Assembly: GCA_965215505.1 (NCBI GenBank)
Contig: OZ244065.1
Coordinates: 3,456,001-3,520,000 of the forward strand
DNA from: Capsulimonadaceae bacterium
GTDB taxonomy: Bacteria > Armatimonadota > Armatimonadia > Armatimonadales > Capsulimonadaceae
Direction: 5' to 3'
DNA length: 64,000 nt
Every line of letters starts with the position of its first letter. Within the stretch, counting starts at the first letter, position 1. The translations under genes and the position numbers were made by a program. The notes under the pieces were generated by a model, which was given only the letters and a program-made list of their open reading frames with translations, searched no databases and was not told the DNA's origin. Shown here piece after piece: positions 39,775 to 57,670 of the stretch.

Positions 39775-39805
39775 TCCCGTGCCTTCTCCTGCCACTGGCG
39801 ACGCG

Positions 39806-40513: not shown

Positions 40514-40560
40514 GGTGGTTTCCTTTGGGATGCGGATGGGATGCCGACGAGAAAGAGCCG

Positions 40561-40726: not shown

Positions 40727-40880
40727 TCCTTCCGGCATTGTCTTTCCCCGGCTTTGTCCCCTCTTCCACTTCCCCTCCCGAATCTCCTGCCGGAACCTTT
40801 CCATTCTCGGAGCGTCCGTGATATAATAAAACCATCACCAGACGGGCGGGCAGGGAGCCGCCCGCCTTAGAGGAGCTTCT

Positions 40881-41528: not shown

Positions 41529-41595
41529 TCGGGGCATTAGATTGGGCATTAGTCACTGACGGTTCGCGTCAGTCGAGGCCGCCGGGACGGGGTGG

Positions 41596-41751
41596 GACGA
41601 GTGATTGAAATCACTCGCTTCGCTCTGGACCTGTCCAGGGGACAGAAGAGGGGGCAGGAGGGGCGAGGCAGAGGAGGCCGGTCCTGTCCCTCTGCTCCGC
41701 TCCCTTGTCCCCTGGACAAATCCGGCGGCAGCGAGTGATTTCAATCACTCG
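41596..41751. repeat. Family-A REPIN-like element, copy 5
   Basis: Same terminal and inner arms; between convergent genes. Confidence 0.9.
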
Positions 41752-41798
41752 GCCCACCCCCGCACTCGGCCTACCACGGCCCGTCTTGGTGGGTCAGG

Positions 41799-42617: not shown

Positions 42618-42818
42618 CTGGAGAGGATATACCCGTTCCTGGAGGACCCCCACCCCCCGCCCCTGCCCTTCACCCCGCTACGGAGGCCCTGCGACTAGGG
42701 GCCGCAAGCGGGAGAGGGAAGCATGAGGGAAAGAAGCCGAACGATTCCCGTTCCTCCTCTGCCTCCAAATCTGACTCCCCTCTCCCGCTTGCGGGGGAGG
42801 GGCGGGGGGTGGGGGGTC

Positions 42819-43547
42819 CTACCGCCCCCACGGCACCAGGAACGGCGTCCCGCTCGCCTCGTAGGCCGCGTACTCCTCCCCATACCTTTCGCGCAGGCGG
42901 GTGGCCTCGTGGCGGGAGGCGGGCCAGGTGTAGAGGGTGATGAGGACGTTAAACAGCAGCAGCCGGGCGGTCATCCGGGGCATCAGCCAGAAGATGGGCA
43001 GTATCCAGAAGTTCAGGGCGTGCCGGCTCTGGCGGAACGGCCCGCCCGTCTTCAAGCGGCCCGCGTCGTCCGCCCCCGGCCCCTGCGCTTCGGGCGCGTC
43101 GGGGACATCGGCCTCACCCCGCAGCAGGGCGGCCAGGCTGTGGAAGCCGGCGAACCGGCGGAACTCGATCTGCCGGACGCCGCCCACCATCTGCCCCAGG
43201 GCGAACGCCTGCCCCAGCCGCAGCAGGCCCGCGACCGGGCCGGAGGCGCGGTACAGCTCGCGGTCGGGCAGCCGAGCCGCGTAAGCCCCCAATGCGCCGA
43301 AGGAGAGCAGGGCGAAGGCCTGATAGAACAGGCGGTACAGGCCGTTCCGCCGACGCTCCCCCAGCAGCCGGGCGGCGGCCTCCTTCGCCGGACGGCACGC
43401 CAGCAGGCTGTGCCCTCCCAAAAACAGCGCGGTCGCCGCCGCCAGTCGCCAGAGCGATTTCCCCAAACGTCTTCTCCAAACGTCTTCTCTTGCCAGGCCG
43501 CTTCTCACGGCACGGCTTTGATCGCCTTCACCGCCTCTTTTACCCAT
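42819..43547 (-). CDS. NnrU / isoprenylcysteine methyltransferase-like membrane protein
   Basis: HSLLA, YRLFY, GPFR.SRH, E..L..RYG..Y..Y...TPFLVP; start uncertain. Confidence 0.65.
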   Translation of the reverse strand: MGKRGGEGDQSRAVRSGLAREDVWRRRLGKSLWRLAAATALFLGGHSLLACRPAKEAAARLLGERRRNGLYRLFYQAFALLSFGALGAYAARLPDRELYRASGPVAGLLRLGQAFALGQMVGGVRQIEFRRFAGFHSLAALLRGEADVPDAPEAQGPGADDAGRLKTGGPFRQSRHALNFWILPIFWLMPRMTARLLLFNVLITLYTWPASRHEATRLRERYGEEYAAYEASGTPFLVPWGR

Positions 43548-44741
43548 TCCAGGTTCACATCGCCCTGCTCGATGCTCGGCGGGATGGCGTAGCCTTCCGT
43601 CCAGCCGTTCCAGGTGTCTATGGACAGGCCATCGGTCTGGTAGCGCAGGGCGAGGGCCTCCTGACGCTGCCGCCAGGACGCACTGAAGCCGTAGACGGGC
43701 AGGCCGGGGAAGACGAGGTGGGCGTCATAGCCGGGCAGGACCGGCGCGATCAGCGGGATGCCGGAGTCGGCCCAGTGCCGCAGGACCGACTCGGCGTGCT
43801 GCCGGCGCTCCTCCTCGGTGATCGCGCCCTGGTCGGCCTTGTAGGTGACACCCTGGGCGGTGATGTTGTACGGGTTGATCGCCAGGACGCTGGCCTGATG
43901 CCGCAGCGCCTCGGGGTCCGGCCCGGCCTCGGGGCCGTAGGCGGAGAGGGGCACCGGGTCGAGGAGGAAGCCGACATCATACCCCGTCTCCTGCTTCAGA
44001 CGGGCGGCGGCGGTGCCGAAACCCTGGGCGAAAGTTTCGGGAGCGATTGCGCCGCCGTGGATGGTTTCGAGGAGCCACAGGGCGTGGCGGGGCCGTCCGT
44101 CCCGGTCGGTGACGCGCAGCCAGTTCGGCTCGTCCCCGAAGTTTTTGAGCAGCCACCCGGCCCGCTGGGCCAGCGGGTCAAGGTTTGCGGGGAAGTCGGC
44201 ATAGAACGGGAAGCGCGGGCCGACCTCCAGCATGGGCGCGACCAGCAGCCCGTGCGCCCGCGCCAGGGCGAAGAAGTGGCGGGCCAGCGCGACCTGCTCC
44301 GCCTCGGCGTAGGGTCCGGGTTTGGTGTCGCCCGGCCAGCGCGTCCGGGAGAAGAGCCAGGCGGGCGCGGAGGAGTCCGTCTCGCCGTCGTGCCCCCAGT
44401 AGGAGAGCTTGACCGTGTTCAGCCCCGCCGAGGCCAGGAGCGCCAGTTGCCCGTCCATGTCGCCGTCCCCGGCCGGCGGCTTGACCGCCGCCGCCGGGTG
44501 CCGGGTGTAGAGAGCCGGGGTTGGGCGGCCCCGCGAAGAACAGGGCGCTCAGGAGGCGCTCGCCGTGGTGCAGGGGGTTCGCGATGCGGCCCCAGACGGG
44601 CTTTGCTACGGGCGGCGGAACAGGAGCCGGAGCGGCGACGGCGGGCCGCAGGCCGAGCATCAGGCCGAGCATCAGGAGAGTACAGGCCAGGGCGAGTGCG
44701 AGGCGTCGGGTGCGAGAGGCGCGGGGGGTTCGTTTTGACAT
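43505..44741 (-). pseudogene. Secreted glycoside-hydrolase-like (GH99/DUF5010-like) gene split by a frameshift near 44517
   Basis: Signal-peptide ORF and downstream ORF (SYWG, PGYDA, TWNGWTEG..IPPS) join if one base is removed from a G4 run. Confidence 0.55.
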
Positions 44742-44960
44742 TTTTTCATCGCATGATTTCTGCGGTCTTCCCGCTCCCCCTGCCGACAGTTCGTTTTCGC
44801 AGATTTCGTTGTTGTGATCGCACGGCCTCTTCCGCCGTGTGCGCGGATGGCATTTCAGTTGTCTACCATTATACCCGATGGGAATGGATATTTGGCCGTC
44901 CGCCCGGTGGGAAGCGTCCAGGTGCGAGGCGGTGCGCTTGCCACGGGGCCGGGTGGAGTC

Positions 44961-45896
44961 CTATCTGAACCGCGCCAACGCTTCCCCGGCGGCTTTCTTC
45001 ACAGGGTCGGTCCCGTAAGCCGCCGCCTGCTGAAACGCCGCCTTCACCTGCTGGGCGTCGGCGACCTTCAGGCGGGCCTTGGCGCCGAGGTTCTGCCAGC
45101 CGTAGCCGTAGTAGTAGTTCGTCAGCGGCGAGTCCGGGCATAGCCGCCGGGCCGCGTCGAACTCCCCCATCGCCTTGTCGTACTGTGAGCCGGAGAAGGT
45201 GGCGCACAGGCCCAGCGCGACGTGCGCCGCCGCCTGGAGGTCCGCCGCAGGGGTTCCGGGGGGCAGGGCGAGGCTCATGCCGGGGCGGTCCGACTCGGGC
45301 ACCCGGATCACCGCCTTGCGGTAGATGACGGCGGCCTCCGCCCCCTGGCCGGTCTGACTGAGCAGCAGGGCGTACTTCATCCAGGCGACCTCCGCCCCCC
45401 CGCCGGGGCAGACGCGGATGTCCGGGTTGAACTGCCCATGGAGGGGGATGTCGTTCTGGATGGGGGTGGTGAAGGGCGGCCCGTAGATGCCGCCCCGGTA
45501 GGCGGCGATGGCCTCCGCGCCCCGCCCCTGGCCGGTCAGCGCCTCGGCGAGTTCATAGTAAGTGCTTGGCGACGGGCAGGTGTCAAGGCTCTCCCGGAAG
45601 GCGGCCTCGGCGGCGGTGTAGTCGCCGTCGCGGAGGGCCTTCGCCCCGGCGTGTTCCAGTTCGTTGATCTTCGCGAGGACTGCGGCGGAGTGTGCCTTCT
45701 GCTCAGGCGTGAGGGAGGAGCGGTGTATGTCATGGCTGGCCCGGAAGAAGTAATCTAGAGCCGCCCGCAATGCTTGCGGCGAAGGGGTGCTTGGTGTCGG
45801 ACTTGCCTGAGCAGTACCTGTTTGGGCTGTGTTCGTTTGAGCCACACACGGCGAGGCTGTGATGGTCAGTGCGAGAAGAAGAATGGCTGGTTTCAT
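44961..45896 (-). CDS. Secreted TPR-like protein
   Basis: Signal peptide; LAEAL..QGR..EAIAAYR, NYYYGYGW. Confidence 0.75.
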   Translation of the reverse strand: MKPAILLLALTITASPCVAQTNTAQTGTAQASPTPSTPSPQALRAALDYFFRASHDIHRSSLTPEQKAHSAAVLAKINELEHAGAKALRDGDYTAAEAAFRESLDTCPSPSTYYELAEALTGQGRGAEAIAAYRGGIYGPPFTTPIQNDIPLHGQFNPDIRVCPGGGAEVAWMKYALLLSQTGQGAEAAVIYRKAVIRVPESDRPGMSLALPPGTPAADLQAAAHVALGLCATFSGSQYDKAMGEFDAARRLCPDSPLTNYYYGYGWQNLGAKARLKVADAQQVKAAFQQAAAYGTDPVKKAAGEALARFR

Positions 45897-45932
45897 CGGC
45901 TTGGGTTCCTAAACGAAGTCGCTCCCGGCCCG

Positions 45933-46718
45933 TCACGCCGGCTTGTTGAGGCGGTTCAGCGTCTTCCGGGCGGCCTCCTTGACATCCGCCCGGCCCATCA
46001 GGATCGCCTTCTTCAGCGACGCTTTGGCCTGCTGCCCGCTGCCGAACTCCAGGCGCTCCTTCGGGTTCAGCTTCTCCCAGCCGAAGCCGTAGTAGTAGTT
46101 CGCCAGGTCCGCGTCCGGCGCGAGCCGCAGCGCCTTGCTGAACTCGGCCATCATCTCCTTGTATTGGCCCTCCCCCGCCCAATCGTCCCCCGCGTCGTAC
46201 ATCACGCCCTGGGCGATGTGGAGGGCCACCGCCAGCGCGACCGGCTCCGGTGTGTCGGGCGCGAAGTGGCTGTTCGCCCGCAGGAGGTCCTTCTCGGGGA
46301 ATTGAGCTATCGCCTGGTTGTAGACGGTGGCGGCCTGTCCCCATTGGCCCGACTTGAGCAGCAGCAGGGCATAGGGGAAAAGAACGCGCGGGTATTGAGC
46401 CTGCTCATCCACCACCATCACGCGGTAGGCATGGAGAGCTTCCTGGTTTTTCCCCTGCGCGTCCAGCGCCGCCGCCAGCACTTCTTCGCCCACATCGCTG
46501 TCGTGACCTCGGGACAGCGCCTCCCGTGCCTCCGTCTCTGCCTGGGCGTAACGGCCCGCGTGCAGCGAGGCGGCGGCATCGTGAACCACTTGTGCGGTCT
46601 TCTCCAGGAACGCCTGCCGTTCGGGCGTGATCTGTACGGGGTTGGCAGGCTGGGCCAGGGCGGCGGGAGCGGCGCTCAGGCAGAAGGCCAGAGCCGCATA
46701 GAGTGTTTGTATTTTCAT
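45933..46718 (-). CDS. Secreted TPR-like protein, paralog of 44961-45896
   Basis: Shared YALLL..GQ and M.EF..A.RL.PD..L.NYYYG.GW. Confidence 0.75.
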   Translation of the reverse strand: MKIQTLYAALAFCLSAAPAALAQPANPVQITPERQAFLEKTAQVVHDAAASLHAGRYAQAETEAREALSRGHDSDVGEEVLAAALDAQGKNQEALHAYRVMVVDEQAQYPRVLFPYALLLLKSGQWGQAATVYNQAIAQFPEKDLLRANSHFAPDTPEPVALAVALHIAQGVMYDAGDDWAGEGQYKEMMAEFSKALRLAPDADLANYYYGFGWEKLNPKERLEFGSGQQAKASLKKAILMGRADVKEAARKTLNRLNKPA

Positions 46719-47032
46719 GGTGTGTCTCTGATCTCTCCCATGGGCGGCGAAGAAGGCGGCGGGGGACGACGATGTCCAGTACCACGACTATAGCACAGAC
46801 ACCGAAAAAGCGCAAGGAGGGCGGCGACAGGACGGCCCCCCCGCCCCCAATTCTGGGGGTGCATGAGAAGGAGGGAGAGCCGGGGGAGAGGGGGGCGCGG
46901 ATCTAGGAAAGAGGGCGCGGATCTAGGAAAGAGGGCGCGGCAAGACAAGAGGGCGCGGCAAGACAAGAGGGCGCGGCAAGCGGCGCCCCTACGAGGCTTG
47001 GACAATGCATCCGGAGCCGCAGCGGGGGAGGG

Positions 47033-49036
47033 TCAGAAGCCTTTGTTCACGTCCATGCGGAAGGTGCCGGTCAGGGTGCTGGGCGTGTCCTTGGTTTTGC
47101 GGGACCAGTTCGTCACCTCGCCGTTGAAGGCGATCGAGTCGGCGTCGTCCATTTTGCAGGTGAAGGTCATCTTGAAGGTCTGGCCGGGGACCGTCGTGCC
47201 GTCCACGCGCAGCTCGGGGCGGCCGAGCATCAGGGCGATGCTCTCGTGGGGCGTGATGTCGCCTTTGAAGCCGGCCAGCCAGCGTTCCAGGCCGGAACGG
47301 TCCGCGCGGTCGTCCGTGTGTTCGTACTGGAGGTTCCAGGCGAGGGTGCGGGTCAGAGCGCCGTCGGCCTCGTAGTGCGACAGGACGGAGTCATGGACCG
47401 AGCCGTCGGGCTGCTCCGACTGGTTGAGGTAGTGGTAGCCCAGGGTGACGTGATGCAGGTGCATCCCGACCGTGTAGTCGCGGACGTCGGCGAGGCGGCC
47501 TCCTAATGTCTGCGTGCGGGACTTGTAATAAAGGCTGTAGTGCAGCCAGTCGCCCGGCGCGATGCTGGCGACGCGGACGGCGCGGCTGACGAGGGTGGAG
47601 CGGGCCTTGTCCCAGCCCGATTCCGCCCCGGCGTACTGCAAAGTGACGTGGGCGTCCGGCAGGTCCGACTCGAAACACAGGGCGCGCGTGTCGCTCTGCA
47701 TCTTCCCCTGGGACACGGCCTGGGCGAGACTGATGACCGCCTTGGAATTCCGCAGGCCGCGCAGGCGCAGGGCGTCCAGGGTGGCCGTCATGTCCCGCTT
47801 CTCACCCCGATCCGCTCCCCCGCTTGATGCCCCGGCGGCGGCGCTCTGGGCGTTGACGCCGTCCCAGTGCCCTGCCAGCGTCAGGCCCTTCGACGCGCGC
47901 CAGTCCATCTCCAGATGCTCGGTCGTCCGGGCCGTCCGGCTGCCGTCCTTGGCGGTCGCGCCGGCCTGGAGGAACGAGGCTTTCAGCCCCAGACCCTTCA
48001 CCTGCCGGTCGATGTCCACGCCCATCGCCTGGTCGGTCGCCTTCGCGCCCGCTTTATCGCCGCCGTCCAGGAGGCTGTTCGAGCCGAAGTGTGCGGCGAC
48101 GTGCGTCCCTTTGATCTGGTCGGCGAAGGCGTAGGCGAGGTGCTGCTCGGCCCGGCCCTTCGTGTCCCCGATCAGGCTGGCTTCGGCGGAAAGTGTCAGC
48201 CCCTTGCCGCCGTCCATCCCGAGCTTCAGGTGGTCCGTGGTGGTCGTCAGGGCCTGTGCGTCGCCCTGGGTCGGTCTGGCGTTCAGGGCGTCCCGGCTGG
48301 CCTCGAACTGGAATCCGTGGCCGAAGGTGCGGCCCAGGGACAAGGTCTGCTGGGTGGTTTTGAGGTGGGTGACGGCGTTGTCGTTCTCCTTGAAGGCCGC
48401 GCCGAGGGTGCCGTGGGCGTCCGCGCGGGTCAGCCCGAAGCCGAGATCGTTCTGCCCGCGCAGGGCGGCGAGCTGCCCCGCCACGGCGGCCGTCAGGTCT
48501 GAGGCCAGGCCCAGGGAGGGGGCCGCGCCTTTGAGCGCGTCGGCCGCGCCGAAGTCTTTGCCGACGGACTGGTAGTGGGCGTCCAGCTTCCAGCCCTTGT
48601 TTTCAAACGCCAAAGCCTGCGAGACGACCGAGGAGGCTTTGGCTTTGCCGTCGCCGCCCGGCCCGTTCGCGAGGTACATCAGGCCGTTCAGGTGGAGGGC
48701 GTCGTGGCCGAAGGCGAGGGCGTTGGAAAAGCCGTAGGTGGCGGCGCGGGGCGCGGCGGCCGTCTTCGTGTCGGCGGCGGGCGAGGCGGCGGCGAGGTTG
48801 TAGAGGAAAGAGACGCCGCTGCCGTGGCCGAACTGGACGTTCACCGGGAGCAGAAGGGGGGCGGTCGGGGCAGAGGCCGTGGTAAAGCTATGGGCCAGGG
48901 GGACGGCGGGGCCGTCCGCGTGGGCGGGGGCGGCGGCCAGGCAGAGCCAGCCGAGGGCGACCCCGAGCCGTCGGGGTGTTTTCGTGGTGCTGCTGGTTTT
49001 TCCCCTGCTTGAAAGAGCCATAGGTTTCCGGGCCAT
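47033..49036 (-). CDS. Hypothetical exported beta-rich protein, possibly an outer-membrane barrel
   Basis: Signal peptide AHA-D; amphipathic beta-like segments; terminal Phe; start uncertain. Confidence 0.6.
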   Translation of the reverse strand: MARKPMALSSRGKTSSTTKTPRRLGVALGWLCLAAAPAHADGPAVPLAHSFTTASAPTAPLLLPVNVQFGHGSGVSFLYNLAAASPAADTKTAAAPRAATYGFSNALAFGHDALHLNGLMYLANGPGGDGKAKASSVVSQALAFENKGWKLDAHYQSVGKDFGAADALKGAAPSLGLASDLTAAVAGQLAALRGQNDLGFGLTRADAHGTLGAAFKENDNAVTHLKTTQQTLSLGRTFGHGFQFEASRDALNARPTQGDAQALTTTTDHLKLGMDGGKGLTLSAEASLIGDTKGRAEQHLAYAFADQIKGTHVAAHFGSNSLLDGGDKAGAKATDQAMGVDIDRQVKGLGLKASFLQAGATAKDGSRTARTTEHLEMDWRASKGLTLAGHWDGVNAQSAAAGASSGGADRGEKRDMTATLDALRLRGLRNSKAVISLAQAVSQGKMQSDTRALCFESDLPDAHVTLQYAGAESGWDKARSTLVSRAVRVASIAPGDWLHYSLYYKSRTQTLGGRLADVRDYTVGMHLHHVTLGYHYLNQSEQPDGSVHDSVLSHYEADGALTRTLAWNLQYEHTDDRADRSGLERWLAGFKGDITPHESIALMLGRPELRVDGTTVPGQTFKMTFTCKMDDADSIAFNGEVTNWSRKTKDTPSTLTGTFRMDVNKGF

Positions 49037-49173
49037 TCCCCATTCTCGGCGGCGAAGCACTCTTACTGTACCCGATTCATACGAAATCGGTCCTACGAAA
49101 TCGGGTGCGTTGGCTATGGAGACAAGAAGGGCGTGGGAAAGTTTCAGGAGTTTTGGGGTGTCCCGTCATGTGC

Positions 49174-49236
49174 CCACGACGGGACCGGACCACGACGGGA
49201 CCGGACCACGACGGGACCGGACCACGACGGGACCGG
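49174..49236. repeat. 16-bp tandem repeat, ~4 copies
   Basis: CCACGACGGGACCGGA. Confidence 0.9.
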
Positions 49237-49259
49237 CGCGTTGATTAGGCCCGCAAGAA

Positions 49260-49470
49260 CCCGGCCCTGAAGGGCCGGTCTAAGGTTTCATTGGGGTATT
49301 CCCGGCTCCGCCGGTGGGCCGCCCCTTCGGGGCTGAGGACAGGAGGGCAGAAAAGAGGTCACGGCGGGGGAAAGAGGTCGCGGCAAGCGGCGCCCTACGA
49401 GGCCTGAACGATGCCGTCCGAAGCCCCGAAGGGGCGGCCCATCCGTGTAGACCGGCGGTTCAACGCCGGG
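49260..49470. repeat. Family-B element enclosing a GTAG REP
   Basis: CCCGGCCCTGAAGGGCCGGTCTA..GCCCCTTCGGGGC / GCCCCGAAGGGGC..GTAGACCGGCGGTTCAACGCCGGG. Confidence 0.88.
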
Positions 49471-50151
49471 TCATCGGGACTTTTCTGCCTTCTTCCGCCT
49501 GCCGGCGATCACGCCCCCCAGGCCCAAGGCCAGGAGCAGGGAGAAAGAGACCGTCGTGGACGCCTCGGGGACGGGGGCACCCACCTGAACGCTGAACGCG
49601 CCCTGAGTGGCGGTCTGGTTGGTGTAGGGCTGGCTGTTGAAACTGTTGAGGTGCGGACCCGTCTCGCCGATGGAGTTAAAGCTCCATGCGCCCGCCTCGT
49701 TACCCGTCTCCACCTCGTACAGAAAGTAGGAGGCCCCGGCCGTCAGCAGCGGATGGCTTGTCGAGGTGATGAGGAGACTGGAGGAGGACACCCCGAATAT
49801 CGGGAGGTTTGTGATCGTAAAGCTTTCCAGAATCGCGCCCGGCACCCCGCCGGAAGCATTCGCCAGGAACAGATGGGCGTCGTTGGTCCCGCTGTAATGC
49901 TGGAGCGCGATGTTGATGGTGCTGAGATTGCCGCTGGCGGAGGCGGTGAAGCCCTCGCCCTGGCTGTCGGTGCCGTTAGAGGCGGCGAGAGGGTTTGTCG
50001 GGCCATACGATAAATAGGCGGAGGTGCCGAACGTGTTACCCGGCCCGAAGTTGCTGAACACCGTGGTCTGGGCGAGGGCGGCTGGGGCGGACAGGGCGAG
50101 GGCCAGGCCTGCCAGTGCCAGCCCGAGGCCGGCCTTGTGGAGAGTGGACAT
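49471..50151 (-). CDS. PEP-CTERM sorting-domain protein
   Basis: Signal peptide; VPEASTTVSFSLLLALGLGG..RRKK; RBS AAGGA. Confidence 0.85.
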   Translation of the reverse strand: MSTLHKAGLGLALAGLALALSAPAALAQTTVFSNFGPGNTFGTSAYLSYGPTNPLAASNGTDSQGEGFTASASGNLSTINIALQHYSGTNDAHLFLANASGGVPGAILESFTITNLPIFGVSSSSLLITSTSHPLLTAGASYFLYEVETGNEAGAWSFNSIGETGPHLNSFNSQPYTNQTATQGAFSVQVGAPVPEASTTVSFSLLLALGLGGVIAGRRKKAEKSR

Positions 50152-50240
50152 GTTGACATTTCCTTTCGGACGAAGAGGAACCGAGTCAAGGCGGGATCGC
50201 CTGCGGCGGGGGGAGTGCGGGACGCCACACAATACTCCCA

Positions 50241-50257
50241 TGCACAAACCATGCCAA
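50241..50257 (-). promoter_or_regulatory. sigma54 -24/-12 promoter
   Basis: Minus strand TTGGCATGGTTTGTGCA (GG-N10-GC). Confidence 0.65.
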
Positions 50258-50453
50258 ACAGGCATTTTGGCGGGGCGGCGTGAATAGGACCTTCCGCGTG
50301 TAATGGGGGGGGCGCGGAAAAACAGAAAACTTTTTTGGGAACATAACTGACATTTTTATCGTCTGTTGTGGGGAGACGGGAACTTTACTGTCCGAATAAA
50401 CGCTATTTTTTGCGTTCTTGCGCCATTTTAGGGACAAATCAATGTGCAACTTG

Positions 50454-51299
50454 ATGGACACGCGCGACACACCGGTCATGGATGCTCCCGCCCCGACTCC
50501 CCCGTCCCCTGTCCCGCGCCAGGCCAAACGGCCGGGCGCGATGACGAGTGAGACCGACATCCACGTCCTGCTCCGCCACCACGCCGAGACGCGGTGCGGG
50601 CGCAGCCGGGAGGCGATCATCGCCCACTACCAGGGGCTGGTGCGGTCGCTGGCCGTGCGCTTCCTGTCCCGCTCCGAGTCGCTGGACGATCTGGTTCAGG
50701 TCGGCTCCATCGGCCTGATCCGGGCGGTGGACCGCTACGACCCCGCGCGCGGCCTGCCGTTCCCGGCCTACGCCGCGCCGTCGATCCTGGGGGAGATCAA
50801 GCACCACTTCCGGGACCGGACTTGGTCGGTGAAGGTGCCGCGCTCGCTCCAGGAGCGCCTGCTGGCCGCCCGGAAGGCGGACGCCGCGCTGACCGCGCGC
50901 CTGGGCCGGAGGCCGACGGTGGCGGAGGTCGCGGGGGAGCTGAACCTGGCCGAGGAGGACGTCCTGGAGGCGATGGAGACGGGCCGCAAGACGCGCGCCG
51001 ACTCGCTGGACCGGCCCCTGGAGGGGGAGGGGGGCGAGGACGGGCTGACCCTGATGGACCAGGTGGGGTCGTGGGACTCGGACATGCACGCCTGGGAGGC
51101 GTACACGGACCTGGTCCGGGCGGTGTCGTGCCTGAACCCGCGCGAGCAGGAGATCCTGCGCCTGCGCTTCTGGGAGGACCAGTCGCAGACGCAGGTGGCG
51201 GAGCAGCTGGGCCTGTCGCAGATGCACGTCTCGCGCCTCCAGGCCCGCGCCCTGTGCCGGCTGAAGGGGATACTGGCCGACGAGGCGGGGCGGTGGTGA
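50454..51299 (+). CDS. SigB/SigF-type RNA polymerase sigma factor
   Basis: DDLVQVG.IGLIRAVDRYDP, I.GEIKHHFRD.TW.VKVPR, SQMHVSRL; start uncertain. Confidence 0.9.
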   Translation: MDTRDTPVMDAPAPTPPSPVPRQAKRPGAMTSETDIHVLLRHHAETRCGRSREAIIAHYQGLVRSLAVRFLSRSESLDDLVQVGSIGLIRAVDRYDPARGLPFPAYAAPSILGEIKHHFRDRTWSVKVPRSLQERLLAARKADAALTARLGRRPTVAEVAGELNLAEEDVLEAMETGRKTRADSLDRPLEGEGGEDGLTLMDQVGSWDSDMHAWEAYTDLVRAVSCLNPREQEILRLRFWEDQSQTQVAEQLGLSQMHVSRLQARALCRLKGILADEAGRW

Positions 51300-51326
51300 A
51301 CCGTCTCCTACGGGTTGACGGTGAAG

Positions 51327-51455
51327 GGGCGTGATGAATCACGCCCTTCTTTCTGCCCCCCTTCCGGCATGGGAGAACAGGGCGCAGAGGGGAGAACAGG
51401 GCGCGATGAATCGCGCCCCTACGCAAGAAGGGCGCACACGCAGGTGCGCCCCTAC
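51327..51455. repeat. Cluster of three GTAG-type REPs
   Basis: GGGCGTGATGAATCACGCCC, GGGCGCGATGAATCGCGCCCCTAC, GGGCGCACACGCAGGTGCGCCCCTAC. Confidence 0.75.
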
Positions 51456-52492
51456 CGCGTCAAAGTCACCTTAGACAGCCCGCGCGGGCTGTCGGGGTCC
51501 AGGCCCTTCTTCAGAGACAGGTAGTAGGTGAAGAGCTGGCCGGCGATGATGTAGACCAGCGGGCTGACCCACTCGGCGACGGCGGGGATGCGGACGGCGG
51601 TCTCGCTGCCGGCGAGGAAGGCGGCGTCGTGGGCGAAGCAGATCAGGGCCGGATGCTGGGCGCGCAGGGTCTCGGCCAGCTTCGCCATCGGGGCGAAGGC
51701 TTTGCCGTCGGGGGCGAACAGGAGGCAGGGGAAGCCGGAGACGACCTGGGTGATCGGGCCGTGCTGGAAGTCGGCGGCGGAGTAGGCCTGGGCGGACAGG
51801 GCGCAGGTCTCGGTCAGCTTCAGGGCAAGCTCGGCGGCCGTCGCGTGGTTGTAGCCCCGGCCCAGGATGATGCACTGGTCCATGTCGGCATACTTGTCCA
51901 CGAGGTGCCGGATGGCGTCGTCGGACCCCAGGGCCTGCTCCATCGAGTCGGCGGCCCGGCGCAGGTGTTCCAGCCGCTCCGGGTGGGACTCGTCCAGGGC
52001 CGTCGAGAGCAGGGCCAGCAGGGCGAGCGACCCGGTGTAGGTCTTGGTGGCGGCGACGCTTAACTCTTCGCCGGTGCCGATGGAGAGCGGGAACTCGGCG
52101 GCCTGGGCCAGAACCGAGCTGGGGTCGTTGGTGATGGAGGCGGTCAGCGCGCCGGACTCGCGCGCCCTTTTGACCACCTCCAGGACGTCCGGCGCGGCCC
52201 CCGACTGCGAGATTCCCAGCACCAGCGCGTTCTCGCCCAGACGCGGCAAAGCCCCGTAGAGCGTGAAGACGGAGGGCGCGGCCAGGGCGACCGGGATGCC
52301 GTGCTGGATCTCCAGGACGTACTTGCCGTAGAGGGCGGCGTTGTCCGAGGTCCCGCGCGCGGCGACATAGGCGAAGGCGATCTGGCGGCGCTTGATCTCG
52401 GCGGCCAGGGCCTCGACGTGGTGGAACTGTTCGCCGATGATGTTCCGGACGACTTCGGGCTGCTGCCGGATCTCGTCGAGCATGTGCGACAT
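51452..52492 (-). CDS. Double-SIS-domain sugar-phosphate isomerase/deaminase (GlmS C-terminal-like)
   Basis: EIRQQP, ARGTS, ISQSG, VAATKTY, ELALKLTE, DSPRGLSKVT. Confidence 0.9.
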   Translation of the reverse strand: MSHMLDEIRQQPEVVRNIIGEQFHHVEALAAEIKRRQIAFAYVAARGTSDNAALYGKYVLEIQHGIPVALAAPSVFTLYGALPRLGENALVLGISQSGAAPDVLEVVKRARESGALTASITNDPSSVLAQAAEFPLSIGTGEELSVAATKTYTGSLALLALLSTALDESHPERLEHLRRAADSMEQALGSDDAIRHLVDKYADMDQCIILGRGYNHATAAELALKLTETCALSAQAYSAADFQHGPITQVVSGFPCLLFAPDGKAFAPMAKLAETLRAQHPALICFAHDAAFLAGSETAVRIPAVAEWVSPLVYIIAGQLFTYYLSLKKGLDPDSPRGLSKVTLTR

Positions 52493-52503
52493 GGCATTAC
52501 CTC

Positions 52504-53418
52504 TCAGTTTGGGGTGGTGGCGGCGGCGTGGCGCGGGAGACGCGCCCGCAGGGCGTCCAGCAGGGCGGGTGGGGCGGGGCGGCCTTCGTAGACGATGCCC
52601 AGGGGGACGTGGGGCTTGGCGATCCCGTGGAAGTCCGAGCCGCCGGTCACCAGCAGGCCCAGCCCGGCGGCGAGGGCCAGGAAGCGCTCGGTGTCGGCGG
52701 GGGTGTGCTGGGAGTAGTACGCCTCGATGCCGTCCAGCCCGTCGCCTTGGGCGAGACTCGTCACCCGGCCCGCCAGGGCAGCCTCGTCCAGAGGGACCAG
52801 GCCGGGGTGGGCCATGACGGCGACGCCTCCAGCCGCATGGATGAGGGCAATGGCGTCATGCGGGGTCAGGACCTCTTTGGGCAGATAGAGCGGCTTGCCG
52901 GTGGACAGATACTTCTCGAATGCCTCGGCGACGGTCCCGACGATGCCCTTCTTGATGAGGGCGCGGGCGAAGTGGGGCCGGGCGATCACCTGGGCGTCCT
53001 CGCCGGCCTCGGCCCGGACGTCGTCCATGGTGACGGGCAGGCCGAGTTCGGACATCTTTTCGGCCATCTGCGCGTTGCGGGCGGCCCGGCTCCGGCGCAG
53101 CTCGATCAAGGTGTCGGCCAGCGCGGCGTCTTCGGGGTCGAAGCCGTAGCCCAGCAGGTGAAAGCGCCCGCCGTCATCTTCCACGGACAGCTCGACGCCC
53201 GGCAGGAGGTCCAGGCCGACTTCCCGCGCCGCCGCCCGCGCCTCGGCCAAGCCGCCCAAGGTGTCGTGGTCGGTGACGGCCAGGGCGGTCAGGCCCAGGC
53301 CGTGCGCCTTTTCCACCAGTTCGGTCGGCGAGAGGCTGCCGTCCGAGGCGGTCGTGTGGGCGTGGAGGTCGATGCCGGCGTCCGGCCCGGTGCCAAGCGT
53401 GTTTGGCGGCGTAGTCAT
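52504..53418 (-). CDS. PHP-domain phosphoesterase (YciV-like)
   Basis: DLHAHT..SDG, TDHD, RPH, AHP, GGSDFHG. Confidence 0.92.
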   Translation of the reverse strand: MTTPPNTLGTGPDAGIDLHAHTTASDGSLSPTELVEKAHGLGLTALAVTDHDTLGGLAEARAAAREVGLDLLPGVELSVEDDGGRFHLLGYGFDPEDAALADTLIELRRSRAARNAQMAEKMSELGLPVTMDDVRAEAGEDAQVIARPHFARALIKKGIVGTVAEAFEKYLSTGKPLYLPKEVLTPHDAIALIHAAGGVAVMAHPGLVPLDEAALAGRVTSLAQGDGLDGIEAYYSQHTPADTERFLALAAGLGLLVTGGSDFHGIAKPHVPLGIVYEGRPAPPALLDALRARLPRHAAATTPN

Positions 53419-53424
53419 GCCGCC

Positions 53425-53453
53425 ATTATAGCCGCTCGGGGAAATGAAGTCAA
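53425..53453 (-). promoter_or_regulatory. sigma70 promoter, leaderless
   Basis: TTGACT-17-TATAAT, 6 nt before the ATG. Confidence 0.75.
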
Positions 53454-53618
53454 GAAAGCGGGCCTACGCGGCCGGCGTGAACCCACCCCGGCGCAAGCGC
53501 CGACCCTCCCGCCCCTGCTCGCAGGGCCTCGGCAGCGGGTACAACGGGAGGGTGGGGTGGGAAGGTGGTTGGGGGGTTTGGTGAGATGATTGGGGGGTGG
53601 GGCGGTTAAGGGGTGGGT

Positions 53619-54133
53619 TCACGCCAGCCGCCCCAGCACTTCCTCCCAGCGGGCGCTATCGAAGCGCACCTGCCAGGCGAAGGGCCGGCCCTTGCGGTCG
53701 TAATAGACGGCCATCGCCGACTTCGCCACATGGCGCGGCTCGGTCGCCAGCAGTTCCCCGCAAGGCCCGCGTCCCGCACATAGGCGACCGCGTGCTTGCC
53801 GCTCATGCGCCAGGCCCGCCCGCCCTCGCCGGTGAAGTAGGCGGCAGGAGTCTCGGCCACGGCGCGGGCCGGGGCGGGTGCCTTGGCCGGGGCCTTGAGG
53901 GGCGGCTTGGGCGTCGCGGGCGGCTTGACGGCCACGGGCGGCTTGGCGGGCGGGGCCGCCTTCACGGGGGCGGGCGCTTTGACGGCGGCGGGCGCTTTGA
54001 CGGCGGCGGGGCGCTTGGCGGGCGCGGGGGCCGGCATGTCGGAAAAGAGGTCAAGGACGGCGGGCCTCTCGGCGGTCTTGATCTCGGCGGTCTTGATCTC
54101 GGCGGTCGTCTTGGCGGGCGGCGTCTTTCTCAT
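53619..54133 (-). CDS. Hypothetical Pro/Ala/Lys-rich protein with a probable frameshift near 53757
   Basis: ATGA overlap with upstream gene; one extra base gives ..GELLATEPRH..AVYYDRKGRPFAWQVRFD..LA*. Confidence 0.55.
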
Positions 54134-54612
54134 GGGCGGTGTCCTCGGAAGCGGGTTTGCCGATTCGCGTTCGGCTTCGGGTTCGTTTTGGCATTTTTCG
54201 GCGCGCGCAGCAGGGCGGGCAGGTCGGCGGCGGGGAAGGCCAGCCAGATCTGCACCCCCGCCCACTCGGGCCGCAGGGAGTAGGACGCTTCCGCCCCGGC
54301 CTCCGCCGTGACCGAATCCCCCGTGACGACGGGGCCGCCGGGGAGGGCGGCCAGCCGCGTCCGCAGATACCGGCACAGGTCGGGCGCGTCCGGCCCGACG
54401 ACGCGGAACCGGGCGGAGACGGCGCGGGCGGGCGGCGTCGCCAGGGCGGTCTTCTTCTGGGCGGCAAGCTCCGCGCGCCAGGCCCGCTCGAACAGCCGCG
54501 CCCGGTCATTGCCCCGGCCCGCCGCGAGGGGGACGTCGAAGCGCAGCTCGCAGGTGGCGTCCGGCGGCCGGGAGGCGTCTGAGGCTAGGGTCTGGTCCAG
54601 GGTGTCCGGCAT
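54130..54612 (-). CDS. Hypothetical protein
   Basis: GC3-biased ORF directly behind a consensus promoter. Confidence 0.65.
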   Translation of the reverse strand: MPDTLDQTLASDASRPPDATCELRFDVPLAAGRGNDRARLFERAWRAELAAQKKTALATPPARAVSARFRVVGPDAPDLCRYLRTRLAALPGGPVVTGDSVTAEAGAEASYSLRPEWAGVQIWLAFPAADLPALLRAPKNAKTNPKPNANRQTRFRGHRP

Positions 54613-54618
54613 GGCACC

Positions 54619-54648
54619 ATTATAGCAAACAAATGTTTGCCCTGTCAA
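54619..54648 (-). promoter_or_regulatory. Consensus sigma70 promoter with palindromic operator in the spacer
   Basis: TTGACA-18-TATAAT; GCAAACA-TT-TGTTTGC at 54625-54640. Confidence 0.75.
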
Positions 54649-54741
54649 GCGGGAGTTTCGGGGCGTTTTGGGGGGTGGCGGCGGGGGCATGAGCGAGGGC
54701 GGCGGGGGGGGGCAGGACGACGAGAGGTGAGGACGAGTGAG

Positions 54742-54907
54742 GACGAGTGAATGAATTCACTCGCTGCCGCCGGACCTGTCCAGGGGACAGAGGAAAGAGT
54801 GGACAAGAAGGCGCGAGGGGACAAGCAACGGCAGCCCACCCCTGCCTGACCCGCTTCACTGTCCCCTGGACAGGTCCGAGAGGAGCGAGTGATTTCAATC
54901 ACTCGTC
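54742..54907. repeat. Family-A REPIN-like element, copy 6 (downstream of tnpA)
   Basis: Left CGAGTGAATGAATTCACTCG, right CGAGTGATTTCAATCACTCG. Confidence 0.9.
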
Positions 54908-54947
54908 CTTACCCGCTCGTCCTTACCCGCTCGTCCTCACCCGCTGC

Positions 54948-55373
54948 TCACCTCTCGTCGTCCTCCGGCGAGGGTTCCCACTCCTTCCACAGATCGCCCG
55001 CCGCATGGTGGCTCTCCTGATTCTGGACATAGGCCCGCACGCGCGGGACGTCGGCAGGGCTGACGGTGGTTCCGTCGTAGCCCTCCTGCCACTTCAGGAA
55101 CAGCGTCACGGGGAGGAGGCCGTTCGCATAGCGGGCGGAGACGCCTTTGGCCTGTTTCACCGCCTGCGCCGGGGCGAGCGTACTCGGCATCTCCAGGAGC
55201 AGATGCACATGGTCGGGCATCCCGCCCAGGGCGAGTACGGTACACCCCATCTGGCGGCACTCGTGATGGATGCAGCCGTAAACCAGCGGCTTCCACTCCG
55301 GGACTAATACGTCTTCACGCCTCTTCGTGGCCCAAACGAAGTGTGAATAGAGTTGCGTCCTGCTTCGCGGCAT
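54948..55373 (-). CDS. tnpA: IS200/IS605-family HUH (Y1) transposase, candidate REP-associated (RAYT-like)
   Basis: HFVWATKRR, GGMPDHVHLL (HUH), KGVS, WQEGY, YVQNQESHH; RBS AAGGAGG; no tnpB. Confidence 0.92.
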   Translation of the reverse strand: MPRSRTQLYSHFVWATKRREDVLVPEWKPLVYGCIHHECRQMGCTVLALGGMPDHVHLLLEMPSTLAPAQAVKQAKGVSARYANGLLPVTLFLKWQEGYDGTTVSPADVPRVRAYVQNQESHHAAGDLWKEWEPSPEDDER

Positions 55374-55428
55374 TTGTTCCCCCTCCTTAGGAGTCAAGCC
55401 AGGTCAAGCGATGTCAGGCGGGCATCAG

Positions 55429-55551
55429 GACGAGTGAATGAATTCACTCGCTATGTGCGGACCTGTCCAGGGGACAGAAGACCCGTCCCCGACCACCTAT
55501 TCCCTTGTCCCCTGGACAAATCCTGCGTCAGCGAGTGAATTCATTCACTCG
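55429..55551. repeat. Family-A REPIN-like element, copy 7 (upstream of tnpA)
   Basis: Both ends carry the CGAGTGAATGAATTCACTCG variant. Confidence 0.9.
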
Positions 55552-55600
55552 TTCGTTCCCTTGCTCGTTCATTCCCTTGCCGGTTCATTCCCCTCCCCTC

Positions 55601-57409
55601 TCACCGCACCCGCACCGTGACCACCATTGGCGGGGCGGATGCGGGGAAGGTGAGGGTGCGCGTCACCGTCCGGCCCCGCGCGTCCGTCACGGTGACGCGG
55701 TAGTCGCCGTAGAAGACGCGGCAGGTCAGGGACCCGCGCGCGTCGGCCTTCCCCGTGTCATCTGTCCACCACTGTTTGTGGATCAGGCCCAGCAGGCGCG
55801 TGTAAGCGGGCTTGGGGGTCATGTCCTTCCGCACCAGGCCCGCCGGGGCACCCTGCCAGGCGTTCCGGTCGCTGAAGTCCCACCAGGTGATCGCGCGGAC
55901 GGACGGGTGGCTGAACAGGACGCTGTAGAACTGCGCGACATAGTCGGCCTGCTTCGCCTCGCCTGCGGGCGTCGTGTCCCAGCCGGTCAGGGTGGCGTTG
56001 GTCGGGTTGTCCCGGCGCGGGCCGCTGAGGACGGTGGTTTCGGTGAAGTGGAGGGGGCGGCCGAACTGGGCGAAGGTCTGGCAGACGGCCCAGACCTTGG
56101 TGAGCGGCCACTCGCCGGTGTGCATGTGCGACTGGAGGCCGACGACGTCGGGCAGCTTGCCGTCCTTCTGGAGCTTGGTGAGCAGGGCGACGTTGCTCTC
56201 GCCGGTGTCGTAGTCGTTGTAGAGGAACGTCTCCGGCAGGCCCCGCCCCGCGTCGCGCGCCCAGCCCAGGGCGGTTTCGACGACGGGGGCGGGTCCGTCG
56301 CGCTTGATCCAGTTGGCCTCGCCGTTCGGGGGCGTGTGGCCCGCCGCGCCGTTGGCCTCATTCAGCACGTCCCAGACGTGGATGGTGTCTTTGTACCGGG
56401 GGACCAGGTCAAGAACGCGGGCGTGGAGCAGGGGGATGGCGGCCTCCGGGTCGGTCGGTGCCCAGCCGGGCCAGACCTCGTGCCAGACCAGCGGGTGGCC
56501 CTTGACGACGACGCCATGGGCGACGCTCCACGTTGCCAGCGTTTGCAGGCGGGCGTAGTCGGGTTTGCCCTGGGCGCTTTCAAACGCGCCCCAGTAGAAG
56601 GGCAGGGTGGCGTAGTTGAGCAGGCCGGTGAACTCGGCCTGGTACGCGCGCTGGGCCGGCGAGGCATCGGCGGGGTCCAGGCCGAAGAAGTTGCAGCCGA
56701 ACAGGAAGGCGTGGCGCGTCTGGGCCAGATGGATGGATACGCCCGGCACGGGTTTCCCCTGGGCGTCCACGACCCGGACGGTCAGTGTCCCCTTGCGGTA
56801 CTTCTCGATGCGCGCCTTGATGGCGGCGGGCTGGAGGGCGGCCTGGGCGGCGGCGATGGCGGGGTCCAGGCCCTCGTCGGTGACACTGATCTGCATCAGG
56901 TCCACGGTCCCCGCCGACTGGCCCATCTGGAGGTGGGCGTTCAGGCCGTAGCCGGGGGCGACGCCGCTGATGGAATAGGTCTGCCACTGCGGGGTCAGGG
57001 TGAAGGTCTGCACGGCGGCCGGGTCATAGGGGGGGCCGTTGCGCTCGACGGTGGCGCGCAGCGGGTTGCGGGTGGCCGAGCGCGCCCAGAAGGTCAGGCG
57101 GACGCGGTGGCCTTCGGGGATGACGGCGGGGATGTCTCGGGTGATCTGGACGAGGTAGAACGGGTCGGACGGCGTCTTGACGGTGACGCGCAGCAGGGGC
57201 GGGTCGCCGTCGGTGAGCGGGACGGTCGAGAGCGCGGCGTCGCCGGGGCGGGGGGCGCTGAGGGACCATTCGCCCGGCGCGAGCAGGTCCCCCGAAGCGG
57301 GCGGGGCGGCGGGCGCGGCGTAGGCGGGGAGTGTGCGGGAGAAGAACGGGAGGAGCAGGAGGAGAAGGCTGAGAAGGCGGTGGGCGGGCAGGCGGGACGG
57401 CGGTGTCAT
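55601..57409 (-). CDS. GH10 endo-1,4-beta-xylanase with N-terminal CBM4/9-like domain
   Basis: KGHPLVW, WDVLNE, YNDY, GLQSH, HFTE, TWWD. Confidence 0.9.
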   Translation of the reverse strand: MTPPSRLPAHRLLSLLLLLLPFFSRTLPAYAAPAAPPASGDLLAPGEWSLSAPRPGDAALSTVPLTDGDPPLLRVTVKTPSDPFYLVQITRDIPAVIPEGHRVRLTFWARSATRNPLRATVERNGPPYDPAAVQTFTLTPQWQTYSISGVAPGYGLNAHLQMGQSAGTVDLMQISVTDEGLDPAIAAAQAALQPAAIKARIEKYRKGTLTVRVVDAQGKPVPGVSIHLAQTRHAFLFGCNFFGLDPADASPAQRAYQAEFTGLLNYATLPFYWGAFESAQGKPDYARLQTLATWSVAHGVVVKGHPLVWHEVWPGWAPTDPEAAIPLLHARVLDLVPRYKDTIHVWDVLNEANGAAGHTPPNGEANWIKRDGPAPVVETALGWARDAGRGLPETFLYNDYDTGESNVALLTKLQKDGKLPDVVGLQSHMHTGEWPLTKVWAVCQTFAQFGRPLHFTETTVLSGPRRDNPTNATLTGWDTTPAGEAKQADYVAQFYSVLFSHPSVRAITWWDFSDRNAWQGAPAGLVRKDMTPKPAYTRLLGLIHKQWWTDDTGKADARGSLTCRVFYGDYRVTVTDARGRTVTRTLTFPASAPPMVVTVRVR

Positions 57410-57498
57410 GGGAAAGTCTCCGGGGGAATGAGATTCGCGTGAAGGGCGGCATGACGCGGTCATGTCGCCTGATGCTCGGTGCGGCGGCTGCATCGGAG

Positions 57499-57670
57499 CG
57501 CCACGGGTTGAAACCCGAGGCTGACAAAAGCCCACTGTCGAAGCGACGTTAAGACAAAGACGCAGAGCGGAGACGCAGGGCAGAACGGAGCGACTGCACC
57601 CGACTGGCTGCCCGGAGGGCAGACCTGGAAGGCGGCGGGCTTTTTGCGCCTCGGGTTTCAGCCCGTGGTG
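57499..57670. repeat. Family-E inverted-repeat element
   Basis: CCACGGGTTGAAACCCGAGG..AAAAGCCC / GGGCTTTT..CCTCGGGTTTCAGCCCGTGG. Confidence 0.75.

Follow-up and report, generated by a model that had tools for sequence, protein, structure and literature searches.

A single-copy IS200-type transposase gene and a dispersed family of two-hairpin doublets in a Capsulimonadaceae bacterium: a candidate REPIN/RAYT-like system

In REPIN/RAYT systems, a single-copy Y1 HUH transposase gene lies between members of its own family of extragenic palindromes, and the REPINs themselves are abundant extragenic pairs of inverted repeats around a short spacer. The REP hairpin of these systems carries a 5' GT[AG]G tetranucleotide at its foot. 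Insertion sequences (ISs) of the IS200/IS605 family are multicopy, with near-identical copies and often with tnpB alongside, and IS608-type elements have unlike subterminal left and right hairpins on one strand and an insertion orientation tied to the direction of replication. The REPIN–RAYT, or REPtron, literature reportedly includes Nunvar 2010, Bertels & Rainey 2011, Ton-Hoang 2012 and Messing 2012, the last of which is said to describe TnpA(REP) as a monomer. Here we describe a locus within 64,000 nt of DNA (the window; G000:C1:3456001-3520000) from the single-contig genome of a Capsulimonadaceae bacterium (G000; 6,177,771 bp, 66.5% G+C), in which a lone tnpA gene, P1, is bracketed by members of a dispersed repeat family, F1. 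P1 and its ~105 non-autonomous palindromic doublets probably constitute a REPIN/RAYT-like ('REPtron-like') system built on an IS200-like TnpA. Such a system would work like RAYT/REPIN, yet its protein falls outside the RAYT family and its repeats are not GTAG REPs.

Two protein groups already described come close to P1. In the accessible text of Quentin 2018 (PMC6006769), subclass 1.2 is recognised by DH[IV]H, WQ and YIKNQKEHH motifs and a median length of 148 amino acids; it has 1.7 copies per genome at 36% identity, is entered as REP 'no' and occurs in Cyanobacteria and Bacteroidetes. The available portion of Bertels 2017 (PMC5581495) presents an 'IS200 Group 3' that is RAYT-like: it lacks duplicates, has several copies in each replicon, is absent from plasmids and is flanked by 16-mers that are highly abundant. 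For E. coli TnpA(REP), the accessible part of PMC3479197 gives a monomeric enzyme with CT as its cleavage dinucleotide. Published accounts, to the extent that their text is available, tie REPIN/RAYT systems to class-2 (Y...NP) RAYTs, mostly of Proteobacteria.

P1 and the class of its protein

The tnpA gene of P1 (54948-55373, minus strand) is a single-copy Y1/HUH transposase-like gene of IS200 type that reads as 141 amino acids from the ATG at 55373, or as 149 amino acids from an upstream TTG (54948-55397). Its product contains an HUH motif (MPDHVHLL; H55/H57), the sequence WQEGY and a tyrosine motif, YVQNQESHH (Y115..Q119..H123). In an alignment of 25 homologues, residues H55, H57, Y115, Q119 and H123 were invariant, and the consensus of the tyrosine motif was YVxNQKxHH. 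P1 scored 86.2 bits against the Pfam family Y1_Tnp (PF01797; cut-off 23), and no tnpB was found next to it in the list of open reading frames (ORFs) of the window or in a Pfam scan of its neighbours. An initial annotation, made from the sequence alone, had described a 141-amino-acid TnpA with intact HUH and tyrosine motifs and without TnpB, which these searches bore out. That annotation had also noted that its proposal would suffer if tnpA were multicopy; we found one copy at 100% identity in the 6.18-Mb genome, the other four Y1 genes being 41, 42, 42 and 30% identical to P1.

Judged by its sequence, P1 is IS200-type and not a member of the RAYT family. It passed the NCBIfam IS200/IS605 model NF033573 (76.6 bits; cut-off 55) and failed the REP_Tyr_transpos model NF047646 (21.4 bits; cut-off 80), in keeping with the WQEGY and Y..NQ..HH motifs that the initial annotation had called IS200-type. 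A profile of the 25 homologues matched only structures of IS200/IS605 TnpA proteins (Sulfolobus 2ec2/2f4f, Deinococcus 2fyx/2xm3 and IS608 2a6m/2vhg; E 4e-23 to 2e-19), with no RAYT structure matched at E<=0.01. Likewise, neither E. coli rayT nor a class-2 RAYT-like gene of G000, described below, matched the family hidden Markov model (HMM) at E<=1e-3. A quick maximum-likelihood tree of 127 rows (113 P1-family proteins, 12 tnpB-type TnpAs and 2 RAYTs) set the P1 family apart from both outside groups: the 12 tnpB-type TnpAs, including the group of the genome's own IS605 gene, fell on one side of a branch with Shimodaira–Hasegawa-like approximate likelihood ratio (SH-aLRT) support of 100, as did the 2 RAYTs with support of 99. 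The RAYT branches are very long, and the tree fixes neither the root nor the order of events. Within the family, P1 grouped with genes from the related genomes G005 and G003 (SH-aLRT 97). A predicted P1 homodimer gave an ipSAE of 0.80, the best of 3 controls giving 0.00, with at least 95% contact agreement between runs and a pLDDT of 80. Among solved homodimers 20 of 30 attain the ipSAE mark used, as does 1 of 23 single chains. The model suggests a likeness to the solved dimers of IS200/IS605 TnpA, to which a memory effect may contribute.

Motifs, length and a low, diverged copy number, rather than the authors' HMMs, would place P1 in Quentin's subclass 1.2 as the accessible text defines it. 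The two share DH[IV]H, WQ and Y...Q..HH motifs, a length of ~148 amino acids (141 in P1), a conserved acidic C-terminal tail, a lack of IS properties and few copies, with ~36% identity between them as against 38-42% here (PMC6006769). Unlike the subclass as it appears in that text, most loci studied here have two-hairpin inverted flanks, with dispersed families of up to ~230 arms, and many members of the P1 family come from Armatimonadota, Chloroflexota, Planctomycetota and Gemmatimonadota. The entry REP 'no' may be accounted for by Bacteroidota loci, most of which lacked flanks in our analysis (flanks at 1 of 6). All four behavioural traits of 'IS200 Group 3' hold for the P1 family, a likeness by description only, the available account (PMC5581495) consisting of summary statistics without repeat structure, taxa or sequences. 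The initial annotation had not recognised the system as described, and this stood in part. As far as the accessible text of these papers goes, the protein class (PMC6006769) and abundant flanking 16-mers (PMC5581495), a statistical hint of the repeats, are already in print. By contrast, full-text searches of the literature returned no F1-type repeats, no two-hairpin doublets and no tie between subclass 1.2 and REPs, nor did we find in print the pairing of such repeats with each gene lineage or their spread across phyla.

Structure and distribution of the F1 doublets

Searches with the F1 arm motif GGACCTGTCCAGGGGACA, allowing up to 3 mismatches, gave 14 matches in the window where 0.10 would be expected (none of 100 shuffles reached 14), and the hairpin motif CGAGTGAWTNNAWTCACTCG also matched 14 times, against 0.00 expected. 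Together, these arms and hairpins make up seven head-to-head doublets, each running from outer hairpin to outer hairpin. The left flanking doublet of P1 (54744-54905), delimited by both motif searches and by alignment, consists of hp1 CGAGTGAATGAATTCACTCG, CT, a linker, hp2 (CTGTCC-AGG-GGACAG), a spacer and the inverted arm. The right flanking doublet (55431-55551) joins a CC..G arm to an inverted TT..A arm and folds as single-stranded DNA (ssDNA) at -44.7 kcal/mol (z -11.4). Solo doublets lie at 6205-6335, 29376-29517, 34644-34773, 36977-37106 and 41598-41751, and those at 34644 and 36977 have identical spacers. The initial annotation had thus been right in seeing a complete element on each flank and five further copies, seven in 64 kb, with starts accurate to within 2 bases. 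As ssDNA, the doublet at 36977-37106 is predicted to fold back on itself as a single long hairpin (-61.6 kcal/mol, z -13.9; none of 200 shuffles was as stable), and a lone arm to form two small hairpins.

A genome-wide copy count, one of the checks proposed with the initial annotation, was made by nhmmer, the 14 arms of the window serving as the basis of the profile. It yielded 228 arms in G000 (115 plus, 113 minus), 210 of which pair into 105 head-to-head doublets, leaving 18 unpaired; doublet length ranged from 129 to 238 bp, with a median of 149 (n=105). Aligning the 216 arms with scores of 40 bits or more, we derived the consensus (A)GGA - CGAGTGAwTGAAwTCACTCG - CT - ~6 variable nt - GGA(CC/TT)TGTCC-AGG-GGACA(G/A) - purine-rich tail. 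The outer hairpin, hp1, has a perfect 8-bp stem and a TGAA loop, and the inner hairpin, hp2, a 6-bp stem and an AGG loop. Hairpin columns were 97-100% invariant and CT followed hp1 immediately on its 3' side in 215-216 of the 216 arms; linker columns were variable, with 88 distinct linkers among 181 parsed arms. On its 5' side, hp1 is flanked by (A)GGA, with the conserved base present at -3, -2 and -1 in 121, 132 and 135 of 152 flanks. As the initial annotation had stated, the repeats lack a fixed GTAG: none was seen at the hairpin foot in the arm alignment or the hp1 flanks. No target-site duplication was found in the 76 doublets examined.

A doublet consists of two slightly different arms facing each other across a variable spacer. 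Two stem-compensating versions of hp2 predominate, CC..G in 120 arms and TT..A in 76 (other in 20), and doublets mostly mix them (CC+TT in 71, CC+CC in 9, TT+TT in none). This compensatory change points, weakly given just two haplotypes, to structure. By our own crude gene caller, based on G+C at third codon positions (GC3; coding fraction 0.76), 86 of the 105 doublets did not overlap a predicted coding sequence, compared with 20% of random 130-nt windows. Their gene context was only weakly biased, with 16 of these 86 between convergent genes against 260 of 1,649 background gaps of at least 150 nt.

The spacers tell a different story from the hairpins. Eighteen of the 105 doublets fall into 8 small clusters of related spacers, some of them at distant loci, which suggests that whole doublets are sometimes copied. 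Among 12 doublet pairs with related spacers, the hairpin columns differed at 23 of 745 positions (3%) and the remainder at 386 of 1,257 (31%, a figure that counts gaps and a few flank bases). That hairpins stay alike while spacers drift suggests that the hairpins are either selected in place or repeatedly homogenised; the copied unit of F1 may be either the arm or the doublet. One doublet, at G000:C1:2624816-2625923, is split by ~1 kb containing two overlapping ORFs that have no Y1 match and that, by eye, resemble an IS5/IS4-like DDE transposase with a frameshift.

F1 doublets are clustered in the genome, with 63 of 105 in the interval 2.5-4.0 Mb and 21 in a peak at 3.4-3.6 Mb. This cluster surrounds both the P1 gene (3.51 Mb) and the maximum of GC skew, which marks the terminus (~3.3 Mb). 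We considered a terminus effect. Another repeat family of the genome, F2, did not support it: 15 of its 59 arms lie in the same interval, about as expected, and F2 is not clustered near its own gene (5.99 Mb) either. For family F4, the figure was 27 of 68 arms. Proximity to the gene and proximity to the terminus cannot be separated for F1.

Half-hairpins accompany many complete ones. Just outside the left doublet of P1 is an extra tandem outer half-site (GGACGAGTGA; 54731-54743, plus strand), and between that doublet and the tnpA stop codon we read three tandem 14-nt units (TCCTTACCCGCTCG-like; 54906-54947, plus strand) that are degenerate half-site repeats. Genome-wide, a copy of the outer half-site stood beside hp1 in 32 of 152 F1 outer flanks, as against 1.4% of random 42-mers. 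Tandem half-stem repeats, with or without the loop, followed by a complete hairpin were seen at 54731-54743, 54906-54947, 55552-55595 and 46880-46960, and outer half-site tandems also occur beside homologues of P1 (loci L008, L015, L039, L090 and L096). They could reflect slippage, or aborted or iterated strand transfer.

Paralogues and homologues with their own hairpins

G000 contains five Y1 genes, P1 to P5, of which P2 is 41%, P3 42%, P4 42% and P5 30% identical to P1. P5 is adjoined downstream by an OrfB_IS605 gene and is an ordinary IS605. P2, P3 and P4 are Y1_Tnp proteins with P1-like motifs, and each sits between its own two-hairpin arms with other stems: the flanking hairpin is CGAGTGGTT-GAA-AACCACTCG for P2, CCCGGAT-TGAA-ATCCGGG for P3 and CCATGTGTT-AAA-ACACACGG for P4. 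Profiles seeded from these flanks found 59, 19 and 68 arms for P2, P3 and P4, forming 25, 5 and 29 head-to-head doublets genome-wide. One wide pair of arms exactly encloses P2, with an arm on each side. Upstream of P3 (G000:C1 ~4020930-4021030), six tandem 20-nt units (GGCGTGGTGTCGGGGGCGCG) lie just outside its doublet.

Of the 41 genomes searched from the order, G000 included, 38 had homologues of P1 (E<=1e-5), with 1-11 diverged matches in each. The nearest were in G005 (53% identical, with one in-frame TGA) and G003 (51%). The G005 homologue (L006; G005:C24:26493-26909) may be a pseudogene, or its match may have been read past a stop; its flanks have the same hp2 (CCTGTCCAGGGGACAG) and another hp1. 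Beyond the order, a scan of species representatives with the family pattern matched at least 598 stretches, of which at least 589 were confirmed, and the best 80 of these came from Armatimonadota, Chloroflexota, Cyanobacteria, Gemmatimonadota (Longimicrobium), Planctomycetota, Bacteroidota and others.

We compared the flanks of 109 loci with enough flanking sequence by taking the best ungapped inverted match between 350 nt upstream and 350 nt downstream of the gene, with flanks paired across different loci as controls. Inverted flanks scoring at least 16 were found at 80 of the 109 loci and in 3 of 109 controls; the median score was 30 compared with 9, and 71 loci exceeded the top control score of 20. 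A lack of such flanks at homologues, which the initial annotation had said would speak against a transposase–repeat system, was therefore not the rule. Inverted flanks occurred at 27 of 32 loci from relatives in the window's order, 25 of 26 from Armatimonadota, 10 of 19 from Chloroflexota, 7 of 11 from Planctomycetota, 4 of 6 from Cyanobacteriota, 4 of 4 from Gemmatimonadota and 1 of 6 from Bacteroidota. Across phyla the arms follow a common grammar: a (T)GAA(A)- or TAAA-loop hairpin comes first, then CT(A/G) or TCT, then a linker, in many cases rich in A/G, and then another hairpin, which is GC-rich. This recurrence of one design with other stems, at three paralogues and at homologues in several phyla, suggests that each TnpA lineage is paired with its own hairpin 'address'.

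In the cases that we tested, a repeat family was abundant only in genomes that have the cognate gene. The hp1 beside the homologue of genome G013 had 111 sites in G013 and 89 in G016, paired 110-135 bp apart, and none in G000, G008 or G006. Similarly, the arm of a Chloroflexia homologue had 129 copies, paired, in its own genome and none in four others. The hp2 16-mer of F1 occurred 109 times in G000, 10-51 times in 6 of 40 other genomes, which belong to the same genus (among them G003 with 38 and G005 with 23), and once or twice in three further genomes, and was absent from the other 31 searched. One Capsulimonadaceae hairpin was rare, at 0-13 copies, which indicates that expansion has not taken place in every lineage.

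Inheritance, proposed mechanism and competing explanations

The initial annotation had called the system domesticated, and one lineage behaves in a housekeeping-like way. For P2, the same neighbour gene (82-92% amino acid identity) is found at six related loci, two of which have identical tnpA genes. In this lineage dS was computable for 11 of 21 pairs, for which the ratio of nonsynonymous to synonymous substitution (dN/dS) ranges over 0.055-0.157, and its hairpin is kept by compensatory stem changes (CGAGTGGTT, CGAGTAGTT, CGAGGAGTT). Vertical, housekeeping-like inheritance was seen for the P2 lineage only. Among 72,556 plasmid records, a collection poor in these phyla, a single one had a protein match at E<=1e-15, and none had a DNA match to the doublet–tnpA–doublet module.

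Compared with REPIN–RAYT systems, P1 is likewise a single-copy Y1 HUH gene between members of its own extragenic palindromic family. F1 also shows inverted pairs around a spacer, with two slightly different arm types that recall the y and z REPs of E. coli, and its doublets, abundant and mostly outside coding sequence, resemble REPINs. There are several gene–repeat pairs per genome, each with its own family, and no target duplications, and the CT beside the F1 hairpin recalls the TnpA(REP) cleavage dinucleotide reported in the accessible part of PMC3479197. Unlike RAYTs, P1 falls below the RAYT model cut-off, has Y..NQ..HH in place of Y...NP, matches no RAYT structure and is modelled as a dimer, whereas the available text of PMC3479197 gives TnpA(REP) as a monomer; F1 differs in lacking GTAG, in having two hairpins per arm and in having spacers that are mostly unrelated between copies. 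With IS200/IS605 elements (IS608, ISDra2) and their MITE (miniature inverted-repeat transposable element) or PATE derivatives, P1 shares its catalytic fold family and motifs, a score above the curated IS200 cut-off, the absence of target duplication, a predicted dimer and, by expectation from these relatives, a hairpin-dependent ssDNA chemistry. It differs from them in being single copy, in lacking tnpB and in forming a clade of its own, apart from the TnpAs that these genomes have linked to tnpB. A single two-hairpin arm, in inverted copies, makes up its flanks in place of unlike ends, F1 lacks a replichore orientation bias, and the P2 lineage combines synteny with purifying selection.

On this comparison, P1 would be a Y1 (HUH-tyrosine) ssDNA endonuclease/transposase of the IS200 branch. 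By analogy with the TnpA proteins of IS608 and ISDra2 and with E. coli TnpA(REP), it would recognise, probably as a dimer, the folded hairpin or hairpins of its own family on transiently single-stranded DNA, and may cut and rejoin DNA beside them without target duplications. Such reactions could spread or maintain the doublets, tnpA itself staying single copy. A broader proposal, which we put forward tentatively and with more doubt than confidence, is that the TnpAs of subclass 1.2 form a second Y1 lineage to have been domesticated, independently tamed or basal, and extending over several phyla. In this proposal, each gene would be locked to its own two-hairpin address, with up to 11 orthogonal pairs per genome, and either selection or homogenisation driven by the enzyme would keep hairpins, rather than spacers, intact at 100 or more loci. 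If so, this would point to a REPIN-like replicator in which the arm, and not the whole doublet, is copied or repaired, possibly with a host role in structuring intergenic DNA.

Several results weigh against a REPIN/RAYT-like system around P1, or limit how far it can be taken. Simple copy-and-paste of whole doublets does not account for the F1 family, as 87 of the 105 doublets have a spacer without a recognisable relative. A linker common to both arms of a doublet, as inverted duplication or conversion would leave, was rejected, since linker identity averaged 0.38 within doublets and 0.46 between shuffled partners. F1 doublets showed no orientation bias by replichore of the IS608 kind (AB 12/20, BA 22/17), the extragenic count leans on our crude gene caller, and 29 of the 109 homologue loci, including 5 of the 6 from Bacteroidota, had no detectable inverted flanks. 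Binding by P1, its cleavage sites, mobilisation of the doublets and a benefit to the host are all argued from analogy with characterised enzymes. Domestication, as proposed in the initial annotation, and vertical inheritance of the P1 copy itself did not emerge from the comparisons: P1 has no syntenic orthologue, its nearest homologues (51-53%) stand in other contexts, and in G008 and G005 its two neighbour genes have no such module between them. In G000, the doublet–tnpA–doublet module (~950 bp) separates a GH10-domain gene (55601-57535, minus strand) from a 160-amino-acid ORF to which no Pfam family was assigned. The motif that in G000 precedes the 160-amino-acid gene (54612-54650) comes 34 nt after the GH10 orthologue (64-65% amino acid identity) in G008 and 16 nt after it in G005, which implies that the two genes are adjacent there. 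The P1 module was thus either inserted or lost twice. The closest relative, G011 (82%), has a doublet of another family at the GH10 site, and its contig stops after 445 nt.

An empty-site comparison had been suggested with the initial annotation; it gave the module-free orthologous junction in G008 and G005 and no empty site in public sequencing data. Twenty-two public runs matched our search, 9 with at least half of the words and no RNA run among those listed, and we compared the Logan contigs of 4 runs from 4 studies with positions 36500-56499 of the window. The locus was present at 90-99+% likeness, one X4 contig spanning 54916-55529 with 2 differences. Neither an empty site nor an excision product was seen for any doublet in these contigs, which break at repeats, a further result that lends the proposed system no support. 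Of the 229 contig joints, the 15 listed link different copies across other spacers.

The locus might also be an ordinary autonomous IS200-family IS (arm–tnpA–arm) with MITE-like derivatives, selfish, recent, still mobile and undomesticated, an explanation that we regard as unlikely. P1 does lie between inverted arms, and P2 has exactly one arm per side, but ends of this kind are inverted repeats, and those of characterised IS200/IS605 elements are said not to be inverted. The lack of the module at the orthologous X-GH10 junction of G008 and G005, together with the non-syntenic nearest homologues at 51-53% identity, would suit a mobile element, whereas the P2 lineage is syntenic at its six related loci and under purifying selection. 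A patchy spread over many phyla also favours an IS; within the order, however, P1-family homologues are found in 38 of the 41 genomes and true IS605 TnpA in 13, and P5 and its IS605 relatives form a separate, fully supported group. The concentration of F1 doublets around the gene would fit a young local burst, yet spacers and linkers are far more diverged than hairpins, unlike what a young MITE burst would produce, and none of the four genes P1 to P4 has a second copy in the 6.18 Mb.

We give very little credence to the converse, that the doublets are host structural elements (terminators, RNA-stabilising hairpins or protein-binding sites) which spread or persist on their own and into which Y1 genes insert as targets. 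Hairpins conserved in place amid drifting spacers, and doublets that fold into very stable long hairpins between genes, are what such elements would show, but enrichment between convergent genes is not strong and, in the cases tested, the families are abundant only where the cognate gene is present. REPs are known as targets of some ISs, with a reported example in PMC8450116, and one F1 doublet contains an unrelated transposase-like ORF pair; between the arms and P1, in contrast, there are no other IS ends. A different family, matching on both flanks, lies beside each of the four paralogues and beside homologues from at least five phyla, so that even under targeting each enzyme must recognise its own family.

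A REPIN/RAYT-like system around P1 would place the REPIN/RAYT way of life on the IS200 side of the tree, in Armatimonadota, Chloroflexota and other little-studied phyla, and offer a natural test of whether Y1 transposases were domesticated once or repeatedly. Conserved hairpins with unconserved spacers would challenge the model in which the whole REPIN is copied. The gene–repeat pairs would also be a set of naturally orthogonal small ssDNA nucleases and hairpins, with a recognition code that could be read from covariation because stems differ while the loop and flanks are fixed.

Other features were seen nearby. The motif CATTATAGCAAACAAATGTTTGCCCTGTCAAG (54612-54650), upstream of the 160-amino-acid ORF, contains the palindrome GCAAACA-AA-TGTTTGC and recurs nearly letter for letter in G008 and G005, where the surrounding intergenic DNA is not conserved; it may be a promoter or operator. 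In all four public runs, depth spikes and many loose ends at 53479-53511 and 42664-42775 point to further repeated elements there. The window had no Rfam family at gathering score.

G000 also has a second, canonical REP system. No gene of the genome matched the RAYT model NF047646 at or above its cut-off; a class-2 RAYT-like gene at G000:C1 ~2469260-2469900 (minus strand), which starts MAYNPERHH, scored 33.7 bits. It is preceded by a GTAG...CTAC 'double-foot' REP like that of Quentin's subclass 2.4. Hairpins ending in CCCCTACG, which occurs 572 times genome-wide, lie in the window at ~40650, 46880-46990, 49380-49420 and 51398-51422, with GGGCGCGATGAATCGCGCCCCTACG at 51398 and GGGCGCGGCAAGCGGCGCCCCTACG at ~46960 and ~49400 as examples. 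The GTAG REP/class-2 RAYT-like system and the P1/F1 system thus coexist in one genome.

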